From Eubacteriales bacterium (lineage in GTDB: Bacteria; Bacillota; Clostridia; Oscillospirales; CAG-272), in NCBI GenBank assembly GCA_050309735.1, contig JBNRMS010000072.1:3815-67814 (forward strand): a stretch of 64,000 nt of DNA, given 5' to 3'. The notes beneath the pieces were generated by a model. That model was not told the DNA's origin, did no database searches, and worked only from the letters and a program-made list of their open reading frames with translations. Below, one piece after another: positions 5,818-50,628 of this stretch. How positions within the stretch are numbered: the stretch's first letter is position 1; every line of letters starts with the position of its first letter. Both the position numbers and the translations under genes were made by a program.

Positions 5818-5853
5818 TTCGCTGTTTAAACCAAAGGGCAGCAAAGTACGCTT

Positions 5854-5896
5854 GGGGGAACACTTCATTGCATGAAGTGTTCCCCCCTCTCTTTTG
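5854..5896 (+). terminator. Intrinsic terminator after dat
   Basis: 15-bp stem GGGGGAACACTTCAT / ATGAAGTGTTCCCCC with a 3-nt loop, then CTCTCTTTTG. Confidence 0.7.
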
Positions 5897-18480: not shown

Positions 18481-18606
18481 GTGCCGCATGAGATTATACT
18501 CGTGCGGCACGAAATAAAATCTCCCTTCGCCGGTATTACCCGTATCAGGTTATGGGGTTCGGACACAATGCCCATCTCAGCCGCCGTCGGCAGCACCCCC
18601 GATTCC
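18481..18606 (-). promoter_or_regulatory. TPP (THI-box) riboswitch with expression-platform hairpin
   Basis: Minus strand 18606->18520 reads CGGGGGUGCUGCC..GGCUGAGAUGGGC..GAACCCCAUAACCUGAUACGGGUAAUACCGGCGAAGGGAG. This matches the conserved THI-box blocks GGGGUGC, CUGAGA, ACCUGAU, GGGUAAUACC and GAAGGGA. A GTGCCGCA.../...TGCGGCAC hairpin at 18481-18510 follows, before the thiT SD. Confidence 0.9.
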
Positions 18607-18627
18607 TAATATTCAGTTTTTTTAAAA

Positions 18628-30842: not shown

Positions 30843-31244
30843 ATGAAAACCCCTATCGAATTTGACTACGATCTCTGGACTACGGAGGAAGGCAAGTGCA
30901 TGGTGCGCGTGAAGCTCACTGGCGAAGTATGCGAGGTCAGCAGAGAAACCATGAGAGTTCTACGCAACGAGGAAAAGAAGCTCAGACGCTCTAAGACCGG
31001 AGTACCTATTGCCGGTTGCAAGGATGAGGATGAGACGGCAACTCTTCTTTCGCTTGATTTTGTCAGTGTGCAGGATGCAGAAGAGATGAGTCCTGCTTGG
31101 CTGGAAGACCCGAACGATTTGGAAGAAACAGTTCTCACTTCCGTTATGGAGCAGGAATTCCGTTTCCGTTTCTTCTTTGAAGGGGCGGCTCGGAGCGATC
31201 CTCGGAGGGGTGAGAGTCCCATGATACTGCTTTACCGGTGGTAG
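30843..31244 (+). CDS. Small conjugative-element-associated protein (sigma-70 region-4-like family), probably C-terminally truncated
   Basis: Start at ATG 30843 (AAGGA SD). MKTPIEFDYDLWTTEEGKCMVRVKLTGEVCEVSRETMRVLRNEEKKLRR resembles, from memory, small ORFs found beside xis/int in Firmicutes conjugative transposons. The tail FRFRFFFEGAARS... looks out of frame and has no HTH. Confidence 0.5.
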   Translation: MKTPIEFDYDLWTTEEGKCMVRVKLTGEVCEVSRETMRVLRNEEKKLRRSKTGVPIAGCKDEDETATLLSLDFVSVQDAEEMSPAWLEDPNDLEETVLTSVMEQEFRFRFFFEGAARSDPRRGESPMILLYRW

Positions 31245-32963: not shown

Positions 32964-33052
32964 TGGCGGAGACGGTGGGATTCGAACCCACGGACCCTTG
33001 CGGATCAAACGATTTCGAGTCGTTCTCGTTATGACCACTTCGATACGTCTCC
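32964..33052 (-). tRNA. tRNA-Ser (anticodon CGA), CCA-encoded, long variable arm
   Basis: Minus strand: GGAGACG-TA-TCGAAGTGGTCATAACGA-G-AACGA CTCGAAA TCGTT-TGATCCGCAAGGGTC-CGTGGGTTCGAATCCCACC-GTCTCC-G-CCA. It shows a 7-bp acceptor stem, a 5-bp anticodon stem, a CGA anticodon, a class II variable arm and a GGTTCGAATCC T-loop. Confidence 0.92.
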
Positions 33053-33188: not shown

Positions 33189-33232
33189 ACGATTTCGAGT
33201 CAGGGCCGTTATAACCACTTCGATATCTCTCC
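33189..33232 (-). repeat. Partial copy of the tRNA-Ser 5' half (acceptor 5' strand through anticodon loop), copy B
   Basis: 36/44 identical to 33009-33052. Similarity stops at the 3' side of the anticodon loop. No T-arm or acceptor 3' strand follows. Confidence 0.8.
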
Positions 33233-33394
33233 ATGTATTTTCAACCGGAAATCCGGTTTGAAAACTATTAAATTGTGTTCGGGAAAATTGCGGGAAAACT
33301 GCGAGATGAGGTTTGAATTTGCTGCACCGGAAAGTACAAAATGTGCCGATAAATCAAAGCTTTTCAAGCCCGAAGCCATCAGCCGACCGACTTT

Positions 33395-33435
33395 GTTTCG
33401 AGTCAGCCCCGTTATGACCACTTCGATATCTCTCC
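33395..33435 (-). repeat. Partial copy of the tRNA-Ser 5' half, copy C
   Basis: 37/40 identical to copy B and 34/40 to the real tRNA. Same truncation point in the anticodon loop. Confidence 0.8.
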
Positions 33436-33478
33436 GTAGAAAATATATATAAACACGCGCCGATATCGGGCGCGTGTT
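33436..33478 (-). terminator. Intrinsic terminator after ribF
   Basis: GC-rich stem AACACGCGCC..GGGCGCGTGTT around the GATATC loop. On the minus strand it is followed by TATATATATTTTCTAC. Confidence 0.6.
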
Positions 33479-33526
33479 ACATTATATCATATAAATCTTT
33501 TGAATGCAATAGCAAAATCAATTTTT

Positions 33527-36680: not shown

Positions 36681-38389
36681 CTTGCCAGCGCGCCCTTCCA
36701 AAGAGTGGCGTACACCCCTTCCATATTTAATAGCTCCTCGTGATTTCCGCGCTCGACTATCCCCTCGTCTGTAATAACAAGAATTTCATCGGCTCGGCGG
36801 ATTGTTGAGAGTCGGTGAGCGACCACTATTGTAGTGCGCCCGCGCGAGAGCTCCTCAATGCTTTTTTGTATCATTATTTCTGTGGCATTGTCAAGAGCCG
36901 AGGTCGCCTCGTCAAGTATGAGAATGGGCGGATTCTTGAGGAAAACCCGCGCTATCGAAACGCGCTGCTTCTGCCCGCCCGAGAGCTTGATTCCCCGCTC
37001 ACCGACCACTGTATCGTATCCCTCGGGGAGCGACTTGATAAAGTCATCTATATTTGCCATTCTTGCCGCCTCCTCAACCTCCCGGCGGGTGGCGTCGGGG
37101 CGACCGTAGGCTATATTATCATATATGGTTGAGTTAAAGAGAAAGACGTCCTGTGCGACTATCCCGATATTTTTTCTCAGCGAGGTGCGGGTGAGGTCGC
37201 GTATGTCGCGGCCGTCAACCTTCACAGCTCCCGAGCTAATCTCATAAAAGCGGGGAACAAGGTGGCAGATTGTGGTCTTGCCGCCGCCCGAGGGGCCGAC
37301 CAAGGCAAGCGTCTTCCCCGCCCCGACCGAGAAGCTGATATCGCGCAGCACTTGATTTCCGTCGTCATAAGCAAAGCTCACATTTTCAAACTCAATATCC
37401 CCCCTCACCTCGCCTGCATCGACGGCGTCGGGAGCCTCGTCCTCGGGCTTTGCGTCCATAATCTCGCAGAAGCGCATAAATCCGGTCATGCCGTTTTGAT
37501 ACTGCTCCACAAAGTCAATTATCCGCCGAACGGGATTGAGGAATATATTGATGTAAAGCACAAATGCAGTAAAATCTCCTATATCGATTTTGCCATAGAA
37601 GAAAAACAGTCCGCCCGCGACATACATAATAGCCTGCAATATGTCGCTGATAAATGTGGTTCCCGAGTGAAACTCAGCCATCGCGCGGTAAGCCCTCTGC
37701 CGAGCTTTAACGAAAAGCCCGTTTCCCTCCTCAAAGCGCCGGCTCTCATGCGATTCGTTCGTATATGCGCGCGAGACGCGAATGCCCGAGATGCTGTTTT
37801 CGAGCGCTGAGTTTATCTCGCCGGTCTGAACGCGGGTCTCGGTGAAGGCATCGCGCATTTTCTTGCGCTTCAGGCTCGCAAAGAGCACCATCAAGGGAAG
37901 AGCTGCGAAAACTATCAGGGTCAGCGGCAAATAAATAGTCGACATTATTATAAATGAGCCAACCAGCATAACGCCCGAAATAAAGAGATTCTCAGGGCCG
38001 TGGTGCGCCAACTCCGAGACGTCCATCAGGTCATTTATAATCCTTGACATTATAGTTCCGGTCTTGTTGTTATCAAAATAAGTAAGAGGCAGGGTCTGCA
38101 AACGACCGAAAACATCGCGCCGCATGTCCGACTGCATACGAACACCCATAATATGCCCGTAATAGGACACAAAATAGTTAAGAAACATTTTTACAAGGTA
38201 GAGCCCGAAAAGCACCGCCGCCCATGCGAGCAGCTTTTGCAGCATACCCTGGGGGATATAGACATTTATCATCGCCCGGGTTATCATCGGGTAAAAGAGG
38301 TCGCATCCGGCAAGCAGCAGCGCTGCTATCATGTCGGCGATAAAAACGCCGAGAACGGGCTTGTAGTAACGTGCAAATCGTTTGATCAT
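36677..38389 (-). CDS. ABC exporter, fused permease/ATPase (MsbA/MDR type)
   Basis: Six-TM N-terminal half. Walker A GPSGGGKTT, signature LSGGQKQR, Walker B ILILDEATSALD. Confidence 0.9.
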   Translation of the reverse strand: MIKRFARYYKPVLGVFIADMIAALLLAGCDLFYPMITRAMINVYIPQGMLQKLLAWAAVLFGLYLVKMFLNYFVSYYGHIMGVRMQSDMRRDVFGRLQTLPLTYFDNNKTGTIMSRIINDLMDVSELAHHGPENLFISGVMLVGSFIIMSTIYLPLTLIVFAALPLMVLFASLKRKKMRDAFTETRVQTGEINSALENSISGIRVSRAYTNESHESRRFEEGNGLFVKARQRAYRAMAEFHSGTTFISDILQAIMYVAGGLFFFYGKIDIGDFTAFVLYINIFLNPVRRIIDFVEQYQNGMTGFMRFCEIMDAKPEDEAPDAVDAGEVRGDIEFENVSFAYDDGNQVLRDISFSVGAGKTLALVGPSGGGKTTICHLVPRFYEISSGAVKVDGRDIRDLTRTSLRKNIGIVAQDVFLFNSTIYDNIAYGRPDATRREVEEAARMANIDDFIKSLPEGYDTVVGERGIKLSGGQKQRVSIARVFLKNPPILILDEATSALDNATEIMIQKSIEELSRGRTTIVVAHRLSTIRRADEILVITDEGIVERGNHEELLNMEGVYATLWKGALAR

Positions 38390-38461: not shown

Positions 38462-38497
38462 TCTCAGAAGAAATTGACGACACATTCAAGTCGTCAA
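38462..38497 (-). terminator. Intrinsic terminator/attenuator inside the ABC-operon leader
   Basis: On the minus strand: TTGACGAC-TTGAATGT-GTCGTCAA (38497->38474), then TTTCTTCTGAGAC. Lies about 85 nt upstream of the start codon at 38389 and downstream of the tandem motif. Confidence 0.55.
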
Positions 38498-38590
38498 GTA
38501 GTGCTATCCCTCACACAAGCGATATGTGTTTATTATTTTTTCTCAGGCGCTATAAGGGCGCGGGCAGGGGATGTTTTTAAGACAGCGATA

Positions 38591-38766
38591 TCATAGTCGC
38601 AAGTGAATATCTCCCGTGTGAGACCTCGCCGTTGCGACATCGCAGGTTTCTTTGAAACCTGCCGGCGTGTATATTATATCATAGTCGCAAGTGAATATCT
38701 CCCATGCGCCACCTCGCCGTTGCGACATCGCAGGTTTCTTTGAAACCTGCCGGCGTGTATATTATA
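38591..38766 (-). ncRNA. Tandem pair (2 x 88 bp) of an unclassified conserved structured element (candidate leader RNA / sRNA)
   Basis: Units are 38766->38679 and 38678->38591, differing only in an 8-10 nt internal patch. Each unit has CACGCCGGCAG, a 9-bp hairpin GCAGGTTTC-AAA-GAAACCTGC, and the inverted repeat GTCGCAA...TTGCGAC. A third copy lies at 49399-49477. Confidence 0.55.
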
Positions 38767-38789
38767 CCATAGTTAGAGGGGTTTGTCTA
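38761..38789 (-). promoter_or_regulatory. Promoter driving the tandem element and ABC operon
   Basis: Minus strand: TAGACA (38789-38784), 17 nt, TGgTATAAT (-10 at 38766-38761). The same ATAGACAAA -35 context occurs at the 49.37-kb copy. Confidence 0.55.
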
Positions 38790-39177
38790 TGTTGCACCGT
38801 GCTTTTTTATTTGGCACAATCGACTTTCTGCTACCATTGATATTATTTCTTCGCGCTGATACGAGTGTAATTTAAAATGATTAATGGTATGCAGCTCAGC
38901 ACGAGAGCGCACTCACGCCCACCCGTCACAAACATATTATAATCCCGGTTACAAAGGCCGCAAAGCTTGCCATAAGCGCAACCTTTTTATGCAGTCCCTC
39001 GCGTGCCCGAAGCAGGCAAATTGTTAATCCAAATCCTTGTATTGTCAAGCGGCAAGTCTTGAAAACACATGCGGGCGGGGGGCGGGTGCGGTCAAGCCCT
39101 TTCTCTGGTTTGGTAATAATGCACAATTTTTGTGTCGCTTTTTATTGAATATTCGCCTTGTGTTCGTTCTTTTGCTG

Positions 39178-39206
39178 TTGACTTATTCTTTTATTTATTA
39201 TACAAT
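39178..39206 (+). promoter_or_regulatory. Sigma-70-type promoter for the ABC/DUF1854 pair
   Basis: TTGACT (39178-39183), 17 nt, TACAAT (39201-39206). Confidence 0.5.
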
Positions 39207-39262
39207 AAGGTGGCTGCTGTGTCGCGGAGTTTTTCGCAATTATGACACGGCACGGAGGATGT

Positions 39263-48978: not shown

Positions 48979-49206
48979 TTATTTTTCTCCCTTTTTCGAG
49001 CGGCGCGAGAGCTGTTCGGTAGCTCGGGCTATATCCTCGTCTGTTGCGTTTGAGAGCGCACGGCGAATCGAGGCTATATCGTTTCCGCTTATGTTGAAAG
49101 CCGACAGGTCGAGCCCGGCCTCGACGGCAAGTTTATTGATTACGAATTTTAGCTGCGCGTCACTCATCCCGAGCAGGCGTTCAAGCGAATTTCTATCAAG
49201 CTGCAT
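48979..49206 (-). CDS. Hypothetical 75-aa protein
   Basis: ORF track. Its stop lies 1 nt before the next start (48977), suggesting an operon with the two genes below. Confidence 0.55.
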   Translation of the reverse strand: MQLDRNSLERLLGMSDAQLKFVINKLAVEAGLDLSAFNISGNDIASIRRALSNATDEDIARATEQLSRRSKKGEK

Positions 49207-49367
49207 ATTTATTCCTCCAAAAATAGATAGTTTCCGGCAGGGTGCCGGATAGAGTTGCTGTCACCGACAGTATATGAAAAACAATTCAAGCTTGACAAAA
49301 CTTTGCCGCAATGTAAGAATAATAATCTCCCCCGAGCGCAGCCTGCGCTAAAGTTGGCGGCGCGATA

Positions 49368-49396
49368 TAGACAAAAGAGCGATTATATGATATACT
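49368..49396 (+). promoter_or_regulatory. Promoter of the third motif copy / lipid-kinase gene
   Basis: TAGACA (49368-49373), 17 nt, TGaTATACT (-10 at 49391-49396). Same architecture as at 38761-38789. Confidence 0.5.
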
Positions 49397-49398
49397 AT

Positions 49399-49477
49399 GC
49401 ACGCCGGCAGCTTTTGAAAAAAGCTGCGATGTCGCAACGGCGAGAGAGCGCATGGGAGATATTCACTTGCGACTATG
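49399..49477 (+). ncRNA. Third copy of the unclassified structured element
   Basis: GCACGCCGGCAG-GCAGCTTTT/GAA/AAAAGCTGC hairpin-GATGTCGCAACGGCGAG..GCGCATGGGAGATATTCACTTGCGACTATG. Near-identical to the 38.6-kb units except for compensatory changes in the hairpin. Confidence 0.55.
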
Positions 49478-49547
49478 TGTGCCGCCAAAGAGCGGGGCAG
49501 GAATTTTAAAATTTATTGGCGCCGCCCTGTGCGGCGTGAGGACTTAA

Positions 49548-50531
49548 ATGAAGCACTATTTTTTGCTGAATCCCGCGGCGGGCAAGGGAAAAAGTTGCGG
49601 CCGGCTTGAGGCCGATATTAAAGCCCTCTTTGGCGAGCGAGGGCTCGGGGTTGTGATTTATTACACCGCCGGGGTTGGAGACGCCGAGAGATATGTCGGG
49701 CAGATTTGCGACAAGGAGGTCGGCGAATGCCGTTTTTATGCCTGCGGCGGCGACGGAACGCTTGGCGAAGTGATAAACGGCGCCGTAGGCTTTTCTCATG
49801 CGTCAGTCGGGGTTATTCCGATTGGAACGGGAAACGACTTTGTCCGCAACTTTACGCACTCGGATAATTTTCTGAGCCTTGAGGCTCAATTAGAGGGAAG
49901 CACTGTTGCCCTTGACCTCATAAAATATAACGGTCGCTATTCGGCCGTTACCCTCAACGCCGGATTTGATGCCGAGGTTGTTAAAATCGTGGCTCGAATC
50001 AAGCGAAACCCCGCCGTTCCGGGCAAGCTTGCCTATGTCCTCGGCGCGCTCTGGCAGCTTATCCGAAAGCCGGGGGTGAAAATCAAGGTTTCTATCGACG
50101 GCGCGCCCGCCGAAGAGCGCAATCTCCTCCTTACCTGCATCGGAAACAGCGCATATTGCGGCGGCGGCTTCAATTCGGGCCCCTGCGCCAGCCCTGCCGA
50201 CGGGCTTATAGACGTCTGTTTCATCAAAAACGTCTCAAGACTCAAGTTTTTATCGCTGCTCGGCTCATATAAAAACGGGAAATATCTCTCGCGCAAGGGT
50301 ATAGACAAAATCGTTGAATACATAAAATGCGAAAAGCTCGATATCTCCTTCCCCGAGCCAAGAGTTGTGAGTGTAGACGGCGAGTTGCGCGAGCTTGACA
50401 TGCTCACGCTCGAATTGGCGCCCGGAGCGCTGCGCTTCTGCCTGCCTGCCGGTTGCGAGGTCATCACGCCTTCCGATATTCCCGCCTGCGCCAAAGTGAA
50501 GACTCGCGCCAGCGGGGCAACGGTTGGATAG
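49548..50531 (+). CDS. Diacylglycerol-kinase-family lipid kinase (YegS/BmrU/DagK type)
   Basis: FYACGGDGTLGEVING, the DAGK catalytic-domain signature. 327 aa. Confidence 0.85.
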   Translation: MKHYFLLNPAAGKGKSCGRLEADIKALFGERGLGVVIYYTAGVGDAERYVGQICDKEVGECRFYACGGDGTLGEVINGAVGFSHASVGVIPIGTGNDFVRNFTHSDNFLSLEAQLEGSTVALDLIKYNGRYSAVTLNAGFDAEVVKIVARIKRNPAVPGKLAYVLGALWQLIRKPGVKIKVSIDGAPAEERNLLLTCIGNSAYCGGGFNSGPCASPADGLIDVCFIKNVSRLKFLSLLGSYKNGKYLSRKGIDKIVEYIKCEKLDISFPEPRVVSVDGELRELDMLTLELAPGALRFCLPAGCEVITPSDIPACAKVKTRASGATVG

Positions 50532-50559
50532 CACCCCAAAAGAACGAACAATAAAAAAA

Positions 50560-50628
50560 GGGGGGCTACCCCCATAAAAATCGGGGGGAACCTCCCATAA
50601 AAGTCGGGGGAACCTCCCATAAAAGAAG
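50560..50628. repeat. Three tandem 23-bp G5/C5 mini-hairpin repeats between convergent genes
   Basis: GGGGGGCTACCCCCATAAAAATC / GGGGGGAACCTCCCATAAAAGTC / GGGGGAACCTCCCATAAAAGAA. Read on the minus strand, the first unit is GGGGGTAGCCCCCC plus T7, a plausible spoVG terminator. Confidence 0.7.

Follow-up and report, generated by a model that had tools for sequence, protein, structure and literature searches.

In Firmicutes, the 5′ ends of messenger RNAs can be protected from RNase J1 by Shine-Dalgarno (SD) sequences of the STAB-SD type and by bound 30S subunits or ribosomes (PMC4113751, PMC5737220). The leaders of this kind, namely STAB-SD of Bacillus thuringiensis cry3A and the aprE, ermC and hbs leaders, are promoter-proximal, have a stable stem-loop close to the 5′ terminus along with an SD-like sequence distant from the main start codon, and would act independently of what lies downstream (PMC4113751, PMC5737220). 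The subject of the present work is a repeated element of 88 bp found in a 64,000-nucleotide stretch of a Eubacteriales genome (assembly GCA_050309735.1, contig JBNRMS010000072.1, positions 3,815 to 67,814; the whole stretch is hereafter called the window), where it stands in tandem ahead of the gene for an MsbA-like ATP-binding cassette (ABC) exporter and as a single copy ahead of the gene for a YegS/BmrU/DAGK-family lipid kinase. It resembles the Firmicute 5′ stabilisers in all of these respects. However, the known stabilisers are short and generic, whereas the element keeps about 50 nt base for base and recurs as a module at two genes, and its GGGAG is a weaker SD than GAAAGGAGG.

Three further systems invite comparison. 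The putL and putR RNAs of HK022 are about 70-75 nt long, form two stems, directly follow promoters and occur as two related copies per genome (PMC9378689), as does the element, which also has a downstream terminator at one of its loci; but sequence homology is lacking, the host is a Clostridia chromosome and not a phage, and two of the three known loci are without a nearby terminator. Tandem riboswitches (e.g. those for glycine) likewise have a leader with two similar structured units one behind the other and a more distal terminator; the units of the element, however, are 95% identical, contain a -10 box and vary in number between close relatives, and a wide phylogenetic distribution, an Rfam match and a conserved expression platform are all wanting. 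In type III toxin-antitoxin (ToxI-like) systems the order is promoter, tandem RNA repeats with units of about 34-45 nt, terminator and toxin gene. The window presents the same succession of promoter, tandem direct repeats, intrinsic terminator and gene, but its units measure 88 nt, a single copy precedes the lipid kinase, and this candidate was rejected on the gene after the array, which encodes a 570-aa MsbA-like ABC exporter and not an endoribonuclease toxin of the ToxN/AbiQ type.

The element lies outside every described RNA family and is a private addition to the broad kind of structured 5′ leader elements, being real, selected and narrowly distributed. Its closest functional analogue would be a 5′ stabiliser or leader module of Firmicutes, and its anatomy recalls the put RNAs. 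The reading favoured in the following, to which a probability of roughly 0.38 is given, takes it for a 5′ leader RNA of the stabiliser type that is young, restricted to one lineage and active in cis.

Organization of the element

On the minus strand ahead of the ABC exporter gene, Tandem Repeats Finder (TRF) reports a period of 88 bp (2.1 copies, 94% matches, score 337, at 38588-38773), and a repeat search returns two 88-nt copies, head-to-tail and 95% identical (minus strand 38766-38591). The array had been noticed in an earlier reading of the letters alone (the sequence-only reading) as an extended -10 promoter (P1; table 1) followed by two head-to-tail units, and TRF, the repeat search and string searches recovered every piece that it listed. 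Thus, both units share a perfect 9-bp hairpin (GCAGGTTTC-AAA-GAAACCTGC), followed by GATGTCGCAACGGCGAG, a short variable patch and GGGAGATATTCACTTGCGACTATGA, the hairpin, GATGTCGCAACGGCGAG and GGGAGATATTCACTTGCGACTATGA strings each being expected to occur 0 times in shuffled sequence. The inverted repeat GTCGCAA/TTGCGAC and the CGCCG/CGGCG strings are likewise where they had been placed. The units differ solely in the patch, as had been said, at 4 positions that all fall inside 7 nt; the patch as originally described overlaps the following GGGAGA by one G, hence this base had been counted twice.

The 88-bp unit starts with the -10 box itself (CTATGATATAAT), so that a duplication copies a promoter element together with the structured part. 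A resemblance to this start (TATGATATAAT-ATA-CACGCCGG) is seen in the -10 box and first transcribed bases of another site in the window, just after ribF (about 33450-33490, minus strand), where TATGATATAAT-GTA-ACACGCGCC-cgatatc-GGCGCGTGT, then a T-rich run, gives a terminator-like hairpin of 9 bp directly behind the -10 box.

Table 1. Features of the two element loci in the window (positions count from its first letter; covariance-model scores in bits).
Feature	Position	Strand	Sequence or remark
Promoter P1	38761..38789	-	TAGACA, 17-nt spacer, TGgTATAAT (extended -10); 11/12 matches plus TG
Unit A, 88 bp	38679..38766	-	110 bits
Unit A, -10 box and variable 5′ segment		-	TATAAT, then ATACACGCCG
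Unit A, hairpin	38750-38730	-	
Unit A, core	38729-38713	-	GATGTCGCAACGGCGAG
Unit A, patch	38712-38704	-	
Unit A, 3′ part	38703-38679	-	GGGAGATATTCACTTGCGACTATGA
Unit B, 88 bp	38591..38678	-	107.7 bits; patch GTCTCACAC
Unit B, own extended -10 box	38681-38673	-	TGATATAAT; TGA supplied by the end of unit A
Unit B, hairpin	38662-38642	-	
Intrinsic-terminator-like hairpin	38474..38497	-	TTGACGAC-N8-GTCGTCAA plus TTTCTTCT; peculiar to the window ABC locus
Promoter P3	38426..38453	-	TTGTCA-16-TATAAT; between terminator and ABC start codon
MsbA-like ABC exporter, 570 aa	36677..38389	-	transmembrane domain fused to ATPase domain
Promoter of copy C	49368..49396	+	TAGACA, 17-nt spacer, TGaTATACT; native to the lipid-kinase gene
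Copy C	49397..49478	+	106.6 bits
Copy C, hairpin	49407-49427	+	GCAGCTTTT-GAA-AAAAGCTGC
Candidate short open reading frame, 26 codons	49467..49547	+	predicted; would start at the element's TTG, 8 nt past GGGAG
YegS/BmrU/DAGK-family lipid kinase	49548..50531	+	

The terminator-like site, which had been put at some 90 nt past the units, lies 93 nt downstream of unit B, with about 80 nt left to the ABC start codon at 38389. Between it and this codon is a second good promoter, P3, which the sequence-only reading did not mention. This succession of promoter, units, terminator and separate ABC promoter is the one that an independent gene (or genes) for a trans-acting small RNA would have, with P1, and perhaps the internal -10 box, driving a transcript of about 210-300 nt with its 3′ end at the terminator, and P3 serving the ABC gene; indeed, tandem small RNA paralogues are known in other Firmicutes. 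Nevertheless, such a gene is improbable, because the element is not followed by a terminator at the lipid-kinase locus or in the relative L027 (see below), where transcription would enter the gene, and because no terminator separates units A and B.

The third copy in the window that the sequence-only reading had counted, here copy C, was also recovered. A covariance model, such as had been proposed, scores the three at 106.6-110 bits and yields no others in the window. The idea of a recurring module of promoter and structured element is borne out, as sigma-A-type promoters at two unlinked loci have sense copies directly behind them. The pattern TAGACAAA-N12-TGNTANNNT has just two sites in the window, which are these promoters. 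The core and 3′ part of copy C are identical to those of units A and B, its patch is AGAGCGCAT, and its hairpin is the allele of L027. It sits 70 nt ahead of the lipid-kinase gene, and a terminator scan of this 70-nt leader detected none.

Every full copy contains GGGAG, 8 nt and UUG. In units A and B, the short open reading frame (ORF) starting from this TTG reads TTG CGA CTA TGA (38692-38681 and 38604-38593, minus strand), while the TAA stop of the candidate 26-codon ORF of copy C abuts the ATG of the lipid kinase. A role of the MRL-stop mini-ORF as a stalling peptide of the macrolide type was considered and found no support. A coding repeat was rejected as well, as the ORFs of 35-49 aa on both strands have no SD, the 88-bp period shifts the frame, and every difference between copies would be non-synonymous. 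A CRISPR-like array, a T-box and arrays of TRAP, PyrR or CsrA binding sites were ruled out by the anatomy or by the identity of the downstream genes.

Tabulating the genes behind the copies, another proposal of the sequence-only reading, gives the MsbA-like ABC exporter and the lipid kinase. Their common link to membrane lipids hints at a small regulon, here of two genes.

Occurrence in relatives and origin

Relatives were found via the neighbouring proteins. In L027 (GCA_964367925.1), the ABC protein is 96% identical to that of the window, the gene order is unchanged, and the same place behind the same promoter holds two full units and one truncated last unit, after which comes a P3-like promoter (TTGCCG-17-TATAAT) and no terminator. 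The copy number is, therefore, different at each locus, with 1 at the lipid kinase, 2.1 at the window ABC locus and 2.8 in L027. Altogether six copies are known, representing five distinct sequences from two closely related genomes; all six are sense-oriented with their first base a few nucleotides past a -10 box, and a full promoter of the TAGACA-17-TGnTATAAT type precedes them at the two window loci and at the one in L027.

Two side observations concern the surroundings of the array. A C-rich stretch directly after it (TTAAAAA-CA-CCCCTGCCCGCGCCCTT; 38551-38577, minus strand) is kept in L027 (about 5843-5870) despite unconserved surroundings, and a similar string, reverse-complemented (GCGGGGCAGG), follows copy C. 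Furthermore, azlC and azlD separate the two divergent ABC genes in L027 (4384-5440), of which the window (about 38926-39240) retains the 3′ end of azlD only, a remnant that points to a deletion of about 1 kb adjoining the repeat locus.

Beyond these two genomes the element disappears. The ABC orthologues at 80% (L028), 75% and 71% protein identity have short, plain leaders without it, that of L028 retaining the promoter TAGACAAA...TGATATACT; the lipid-kinase orthologues, at 65-69% identity, keep the promoter TATAGACAAAA...TATGTGATAAAAT followed by unrelated leaders, again without the element. With its filters off, the covariance model found no copy in the more distant orthologous leaders and, together with nhmmer --max, no diverged copies in the window and related loci. 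Since the orthologues that lack the element keep their promoters, both promoters are ancestral, and the element was acquired behind their -10 boxes within a single narrow lineage. The element is thus best read as young and lineage-restricted, and the tandem pair most likely reflects a recent duplication by unequal crossover between the -10 region CTATGgTATAAT and the look-alike element end CTATGATAT.

Database searches gave the same picture. The DNA pattern used for species genomes, which matches all three window copies and demands about 22 exact bases, found no real copy in GTDB at one genome per species (185,579 species), the one match, in a Chloroflexi metagenome-assembled genome (MAG), being due to chance. 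In IMG/VR, one of two valid patterns gave chance matches alone and the other nothing, and blastn against plasmids and phages returned no match. The sequence-only reading could place the element in no riboswitch or small RNA family known to it, and no family match was obtained here: Rfam 15 gave nothing for the tandem region at the gathering threshold, and at E up to 10 just noise far under the thresholds for the tandem locus, copy C and the L027 locus. A chimeric six-frame translation of the unit had no match among 5.8 billion predicted proteins.

Polymorphic copy number, lineage-restricted distribution and spread between two loci are also what a functionless selfish or neutral repeat would show, be it a plain variable-number tandem repeat or one like miniature inverted-repeat transposable elements (MITE) or repetitive extragenic palindromes (REP). 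The behaviour that the sequence-only reading had named as the mark of such repeats, i.e. copies in either orientation relative to genes with target-site duplications, was not seen: the 64-kb window and about 97 kb of related loci hold promoter-linked sense copies only, with none antisense or away from promoters, and inspection revealed neither terminal inverted repeats nor a consistent target-site duplication (ACTATG flanks copy C, but the boundaries fail at the ABC locus). Moreover, there are just two loci in 64 kb, which agree in orientation and in placement relative to the -10 box, and the 3′ block is far more conserved than neutral sites (see below), so that a repeat devoid of function is very unlikely.

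Selection and RNA structure

Between the window and L027, neutral divergence amounts to about 22%: identity at 4-fold degenerate sites is 78% for the ABC gene (n=268) and 75-82% for ribF and ireB, and that of the flanking intergenic DNA is 74%. Against this background, the last 55 nt of unit A and of the first L027 unit are identical at 52 of 55 positions (94.5%; binomial P about 8e-4), and when the 4-nt patch is excluded, by a partition chosen post hoc, 1 of 51 positions differs (P about 5e-5). Judged from these alignments, the element is under purifying selection and, hence, functional. The constraint does not extend to the predicted start of the RNA, where 7 of the first 10 transcribed bases differ between the same two units.

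In the hairpin, shape rather than sequence is maintained. Four of the five positions that differ between unit A and L027 form two double-sided changes (G-C to C-G and C-G to U-A), and the 9 bp are 100% paired in all copies; both alleles are present in the window, one in units A and B and that of L027 in copy C. Among the stems examined, this is the only one that covaries: of the two further pairings proposed in the sequence-only reading, GTCGCAA/TTGCGAC is invariant across copies and CGCCG/CGGCG is reduced in L027 to a pair of U-G wobbles with mismatches, and RNAalifold favours an alternative fold of three hairpins made from equally invariant bases. The two C-to-U changes of L027, however, keep U-G pairs with CGGCG, which are possible in the sense RNA alone, and these wobbles, read from the sequence, are all that hints at structure in the sense rather than the antisense strand. 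Unrelated hairpins with 3-nt loops open three of the five leaders of orthologues in relatives (L049, L046 and L028), and a 5′ stem-loop therefore seems a general feature of such leaders.

The palindrome could also serve at the DNA level, as an operator which, together with the conserved block, binds a repressor or activator below the promoters, the tandem copies multiplying the operators. It is perfect over 21 bp and lies at about +10 to +30, a typical operator position, and both the conservation and the folding z-scores are much the same for the two strands. Yet the two palindrome alleles found in one genome differ by mirrored changes, which suit a stem and do not suit the half-site preference of a single protein; furthermore, no regulator gene adjoins either locus, and variation is unconstrained in the 4-nt patch and over the initial 10 transcribed bases. 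An operator is accordingly given little probability.

Proposed mode of action and alternatives

On the favoured reading of a cis-acting stabiliser, the sigma-A promoter directly ahead would transcribe the element in sense, so that the RNA begins within a few bases of it. Three parts may then be distinguished: (i) the 5′-proximal 9-bp stem-loop, conserved in shape rather than in sequence; (ii) a sequence-conserved block of about 50 nt; and (iii) inside this block, an accessible SD-like GGGAG located 8 nt ahead of UUG. The stem-loop and a 30S subunit bound at the GGGAG, or a ribosome on the mini-ORF, would block the entry of RNase J1 or RNase Y, and this block would raise the output of the operon of the MsbA-like exporter and of the DAGK-type lipid kinase. 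Each extra unit, by adding an extended -10 box, would possibly provide an additional transcription start with the element at the 5′ end, and the element may spread together with its -10 box. The geometry agrees with that of known stabilisers, as the hairpin lies about 10 nt past the predicted start and the main start codons come 70-300 nt after GGGAG. Past the element the three loci are wholly unlike, with about 93 nt, the terminator and P3 at the window ABC locus, the truncated unit and a P3-like promoter in L027, and the 70-nt leader at the kinase; therefore, the element most likely exerts its effect from the 5′ end of the RNA and not via an adjacent expression platform.

The same contexts bear on the proposal of the sequence-only reading, which saw in tandem units followed by a terminator the architecture of tandem riboswitches or attenuators. 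That architecture is not supported: the terminator is present at one locus of three, off the element and followed by its own promoter; the units vary in number and each carries a -10 box; and the element was found neither in sister-species leaders nor, by the pattern scan, in the genomes of 185,579 species. In its more general form, with the units as sensors of a ligand, perhaps membrane-lipid-related, or of a protein, and the downstream structures (the terminator at 38497-38474, or a hairpin ahead of the lipid-kinase SD) as read-out, a responsive leader draws on the conserved core, the compensatory hairpin changes, the placement in 5′ leaders and the lipid link of both genes. Mutually exclusive pairings can also be drawn, with GTCGCAA/TTGCGAC as one state and UCGC/GCGA plus CGCA/UGCG as the other; the 5′ CACGCCG of copy C can pair with CGGCGUG beside the SD; and the patch of unit B (UCUCACAC) has its complement in GUGUGAGG, which closely precedes the terminator, although these 8 bp are clear of the terminator stem, unique to unit B and unused in the minimum-free-energy fold. 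Such a leader is nevertheless unlikely, considering the silence of Rfam at E up to 10, the lack of copies in the species genomes and in orthologous leaders at 65-80% protein identity, the lack of an expression platform common to the three loci (the terminator being missing in L027 and at copy C), and a polymorphic tandem number with a duplication that spans the -10 box, unlike cooperative tandem aptamers.

An action independent of the downstream sequence, which suits variable contexts, would also be provided by a put-like RNA, in which a nascent RNA of about 75 nt with two stems binds the elongation complex of RNA polymerase and allows read-through of a terminator, e.g. that at 38497-38474, which does stand between element and gene at the window ABC locus. 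The anatomy is alike (about 70 nt, two stems, a position behind promoters, two copies per genome and a nearby -10-like sequence; PMC9378689). Against this, homology to put has appeared in neither sequence nor structure, a terminator is nearby at one of the three loci, nothing at these loci is phage-like, and the phage, plasmid and viral collections gave no matches. In addition, the put-like RNAs known come from enterobacterial lambdoid phages, and their occurrence here is highly improbable.

Several points weigh against the stabiliser itself. The transcription starts on which it depends are predicted from the promoters. A generic stabiliser leaves the base-for-base conservation of some 50 nt unexplained, which suggests a specific partner (a protein, a ligand, RNA polymerase or the ribosome), and confidence in the stabiliser remains modest for this reason. 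With the terminator and P3 in between, the ABC gene of the window would no longer be coupled to the element, which would there yield a separate RNA of about 210-300 nt. With five distinct sequences from two genomes, the hairpin covariation amounts essentially to one evolutionary event, and template switching can restore perfect palindromes without selection. Folding energies and z-scores are similar on both strands and do not favour the sense one. Finally, chance SD-like runs and short ORFs are common.

It is quite unlikely, though in keeping with a specific partner, that the element is a newborn class of regulatory RNA, i.e. a sequence-specific, promoter-attached leader that recruits a lipid-state ligand, an RNA-binding protein or RNA polymerase, spreads behind look-alike -10 boxes and has its dosage tuned by tandem duplication.

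Neighbouring features

On the 3′ side of the ABC gene follow a gene for a 613-aa protein with a weak metallo-β-lactamase (MBL)/ComEC-like match, then ireB and ribF. Around the lipid kinase, a unit of 22-23 nt (GGGGGAACCTCCCATAAAAGTC) is repeated about 3.3 times in tandem at 50551-50625, between the stop codon of the kinase and spoVG, where relatives have a Metallophos_2 gene that the window lacks. On the other side, a palindrome (CTGTCACCGACAG) followed by TATATGA (about 49255-49278, plus strand) precedes a divergent gene for a 75-aa protein (48979-49206, minus strand); the palindrome is kept in relatives L046-L049 and has an operator-like look. The 75-aa protein and a 174-aa protein have no Pfam or NCBIfam match.

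Elsewhere in the window, two structured RNAs exceed the Rfam gathering threshold, namely a thiamine pyrophosphate (TPP) riboswitch (18505-18610, minus strand, 74.5 bits) and a pemK RNA motif (31137-31224, plus strand, 44.5 bits). Ahead of a tRNA-Ser(CGA) gene (32964-33052, minus strand), and on its strand, lie two truncated copies of the 5′ half of this gene (33193-33235 and 33396-33438), which are 77-86% identical over 43 nt; ARAGORN calls the complete gene alone.

Concluding remarks

The evidence at hand opens no new riboswitch class, and the residence of the element in uncultured MAGs makes experiments indirect. Selection on it is nonetheless measurable and purifying, although the element is only one genus deep. 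If the favoured reading is true, a promoter-proximal structured leader would have passed by copying from one membrane-lipid gene to another and multiplied in tandem. The two loci would then illustrate on a small scale how expression modules arise and spread in bacteria, a matter of some interest to the study of 5′ untranslated region evolution and to the design of synthetic leaders in Clostridia.

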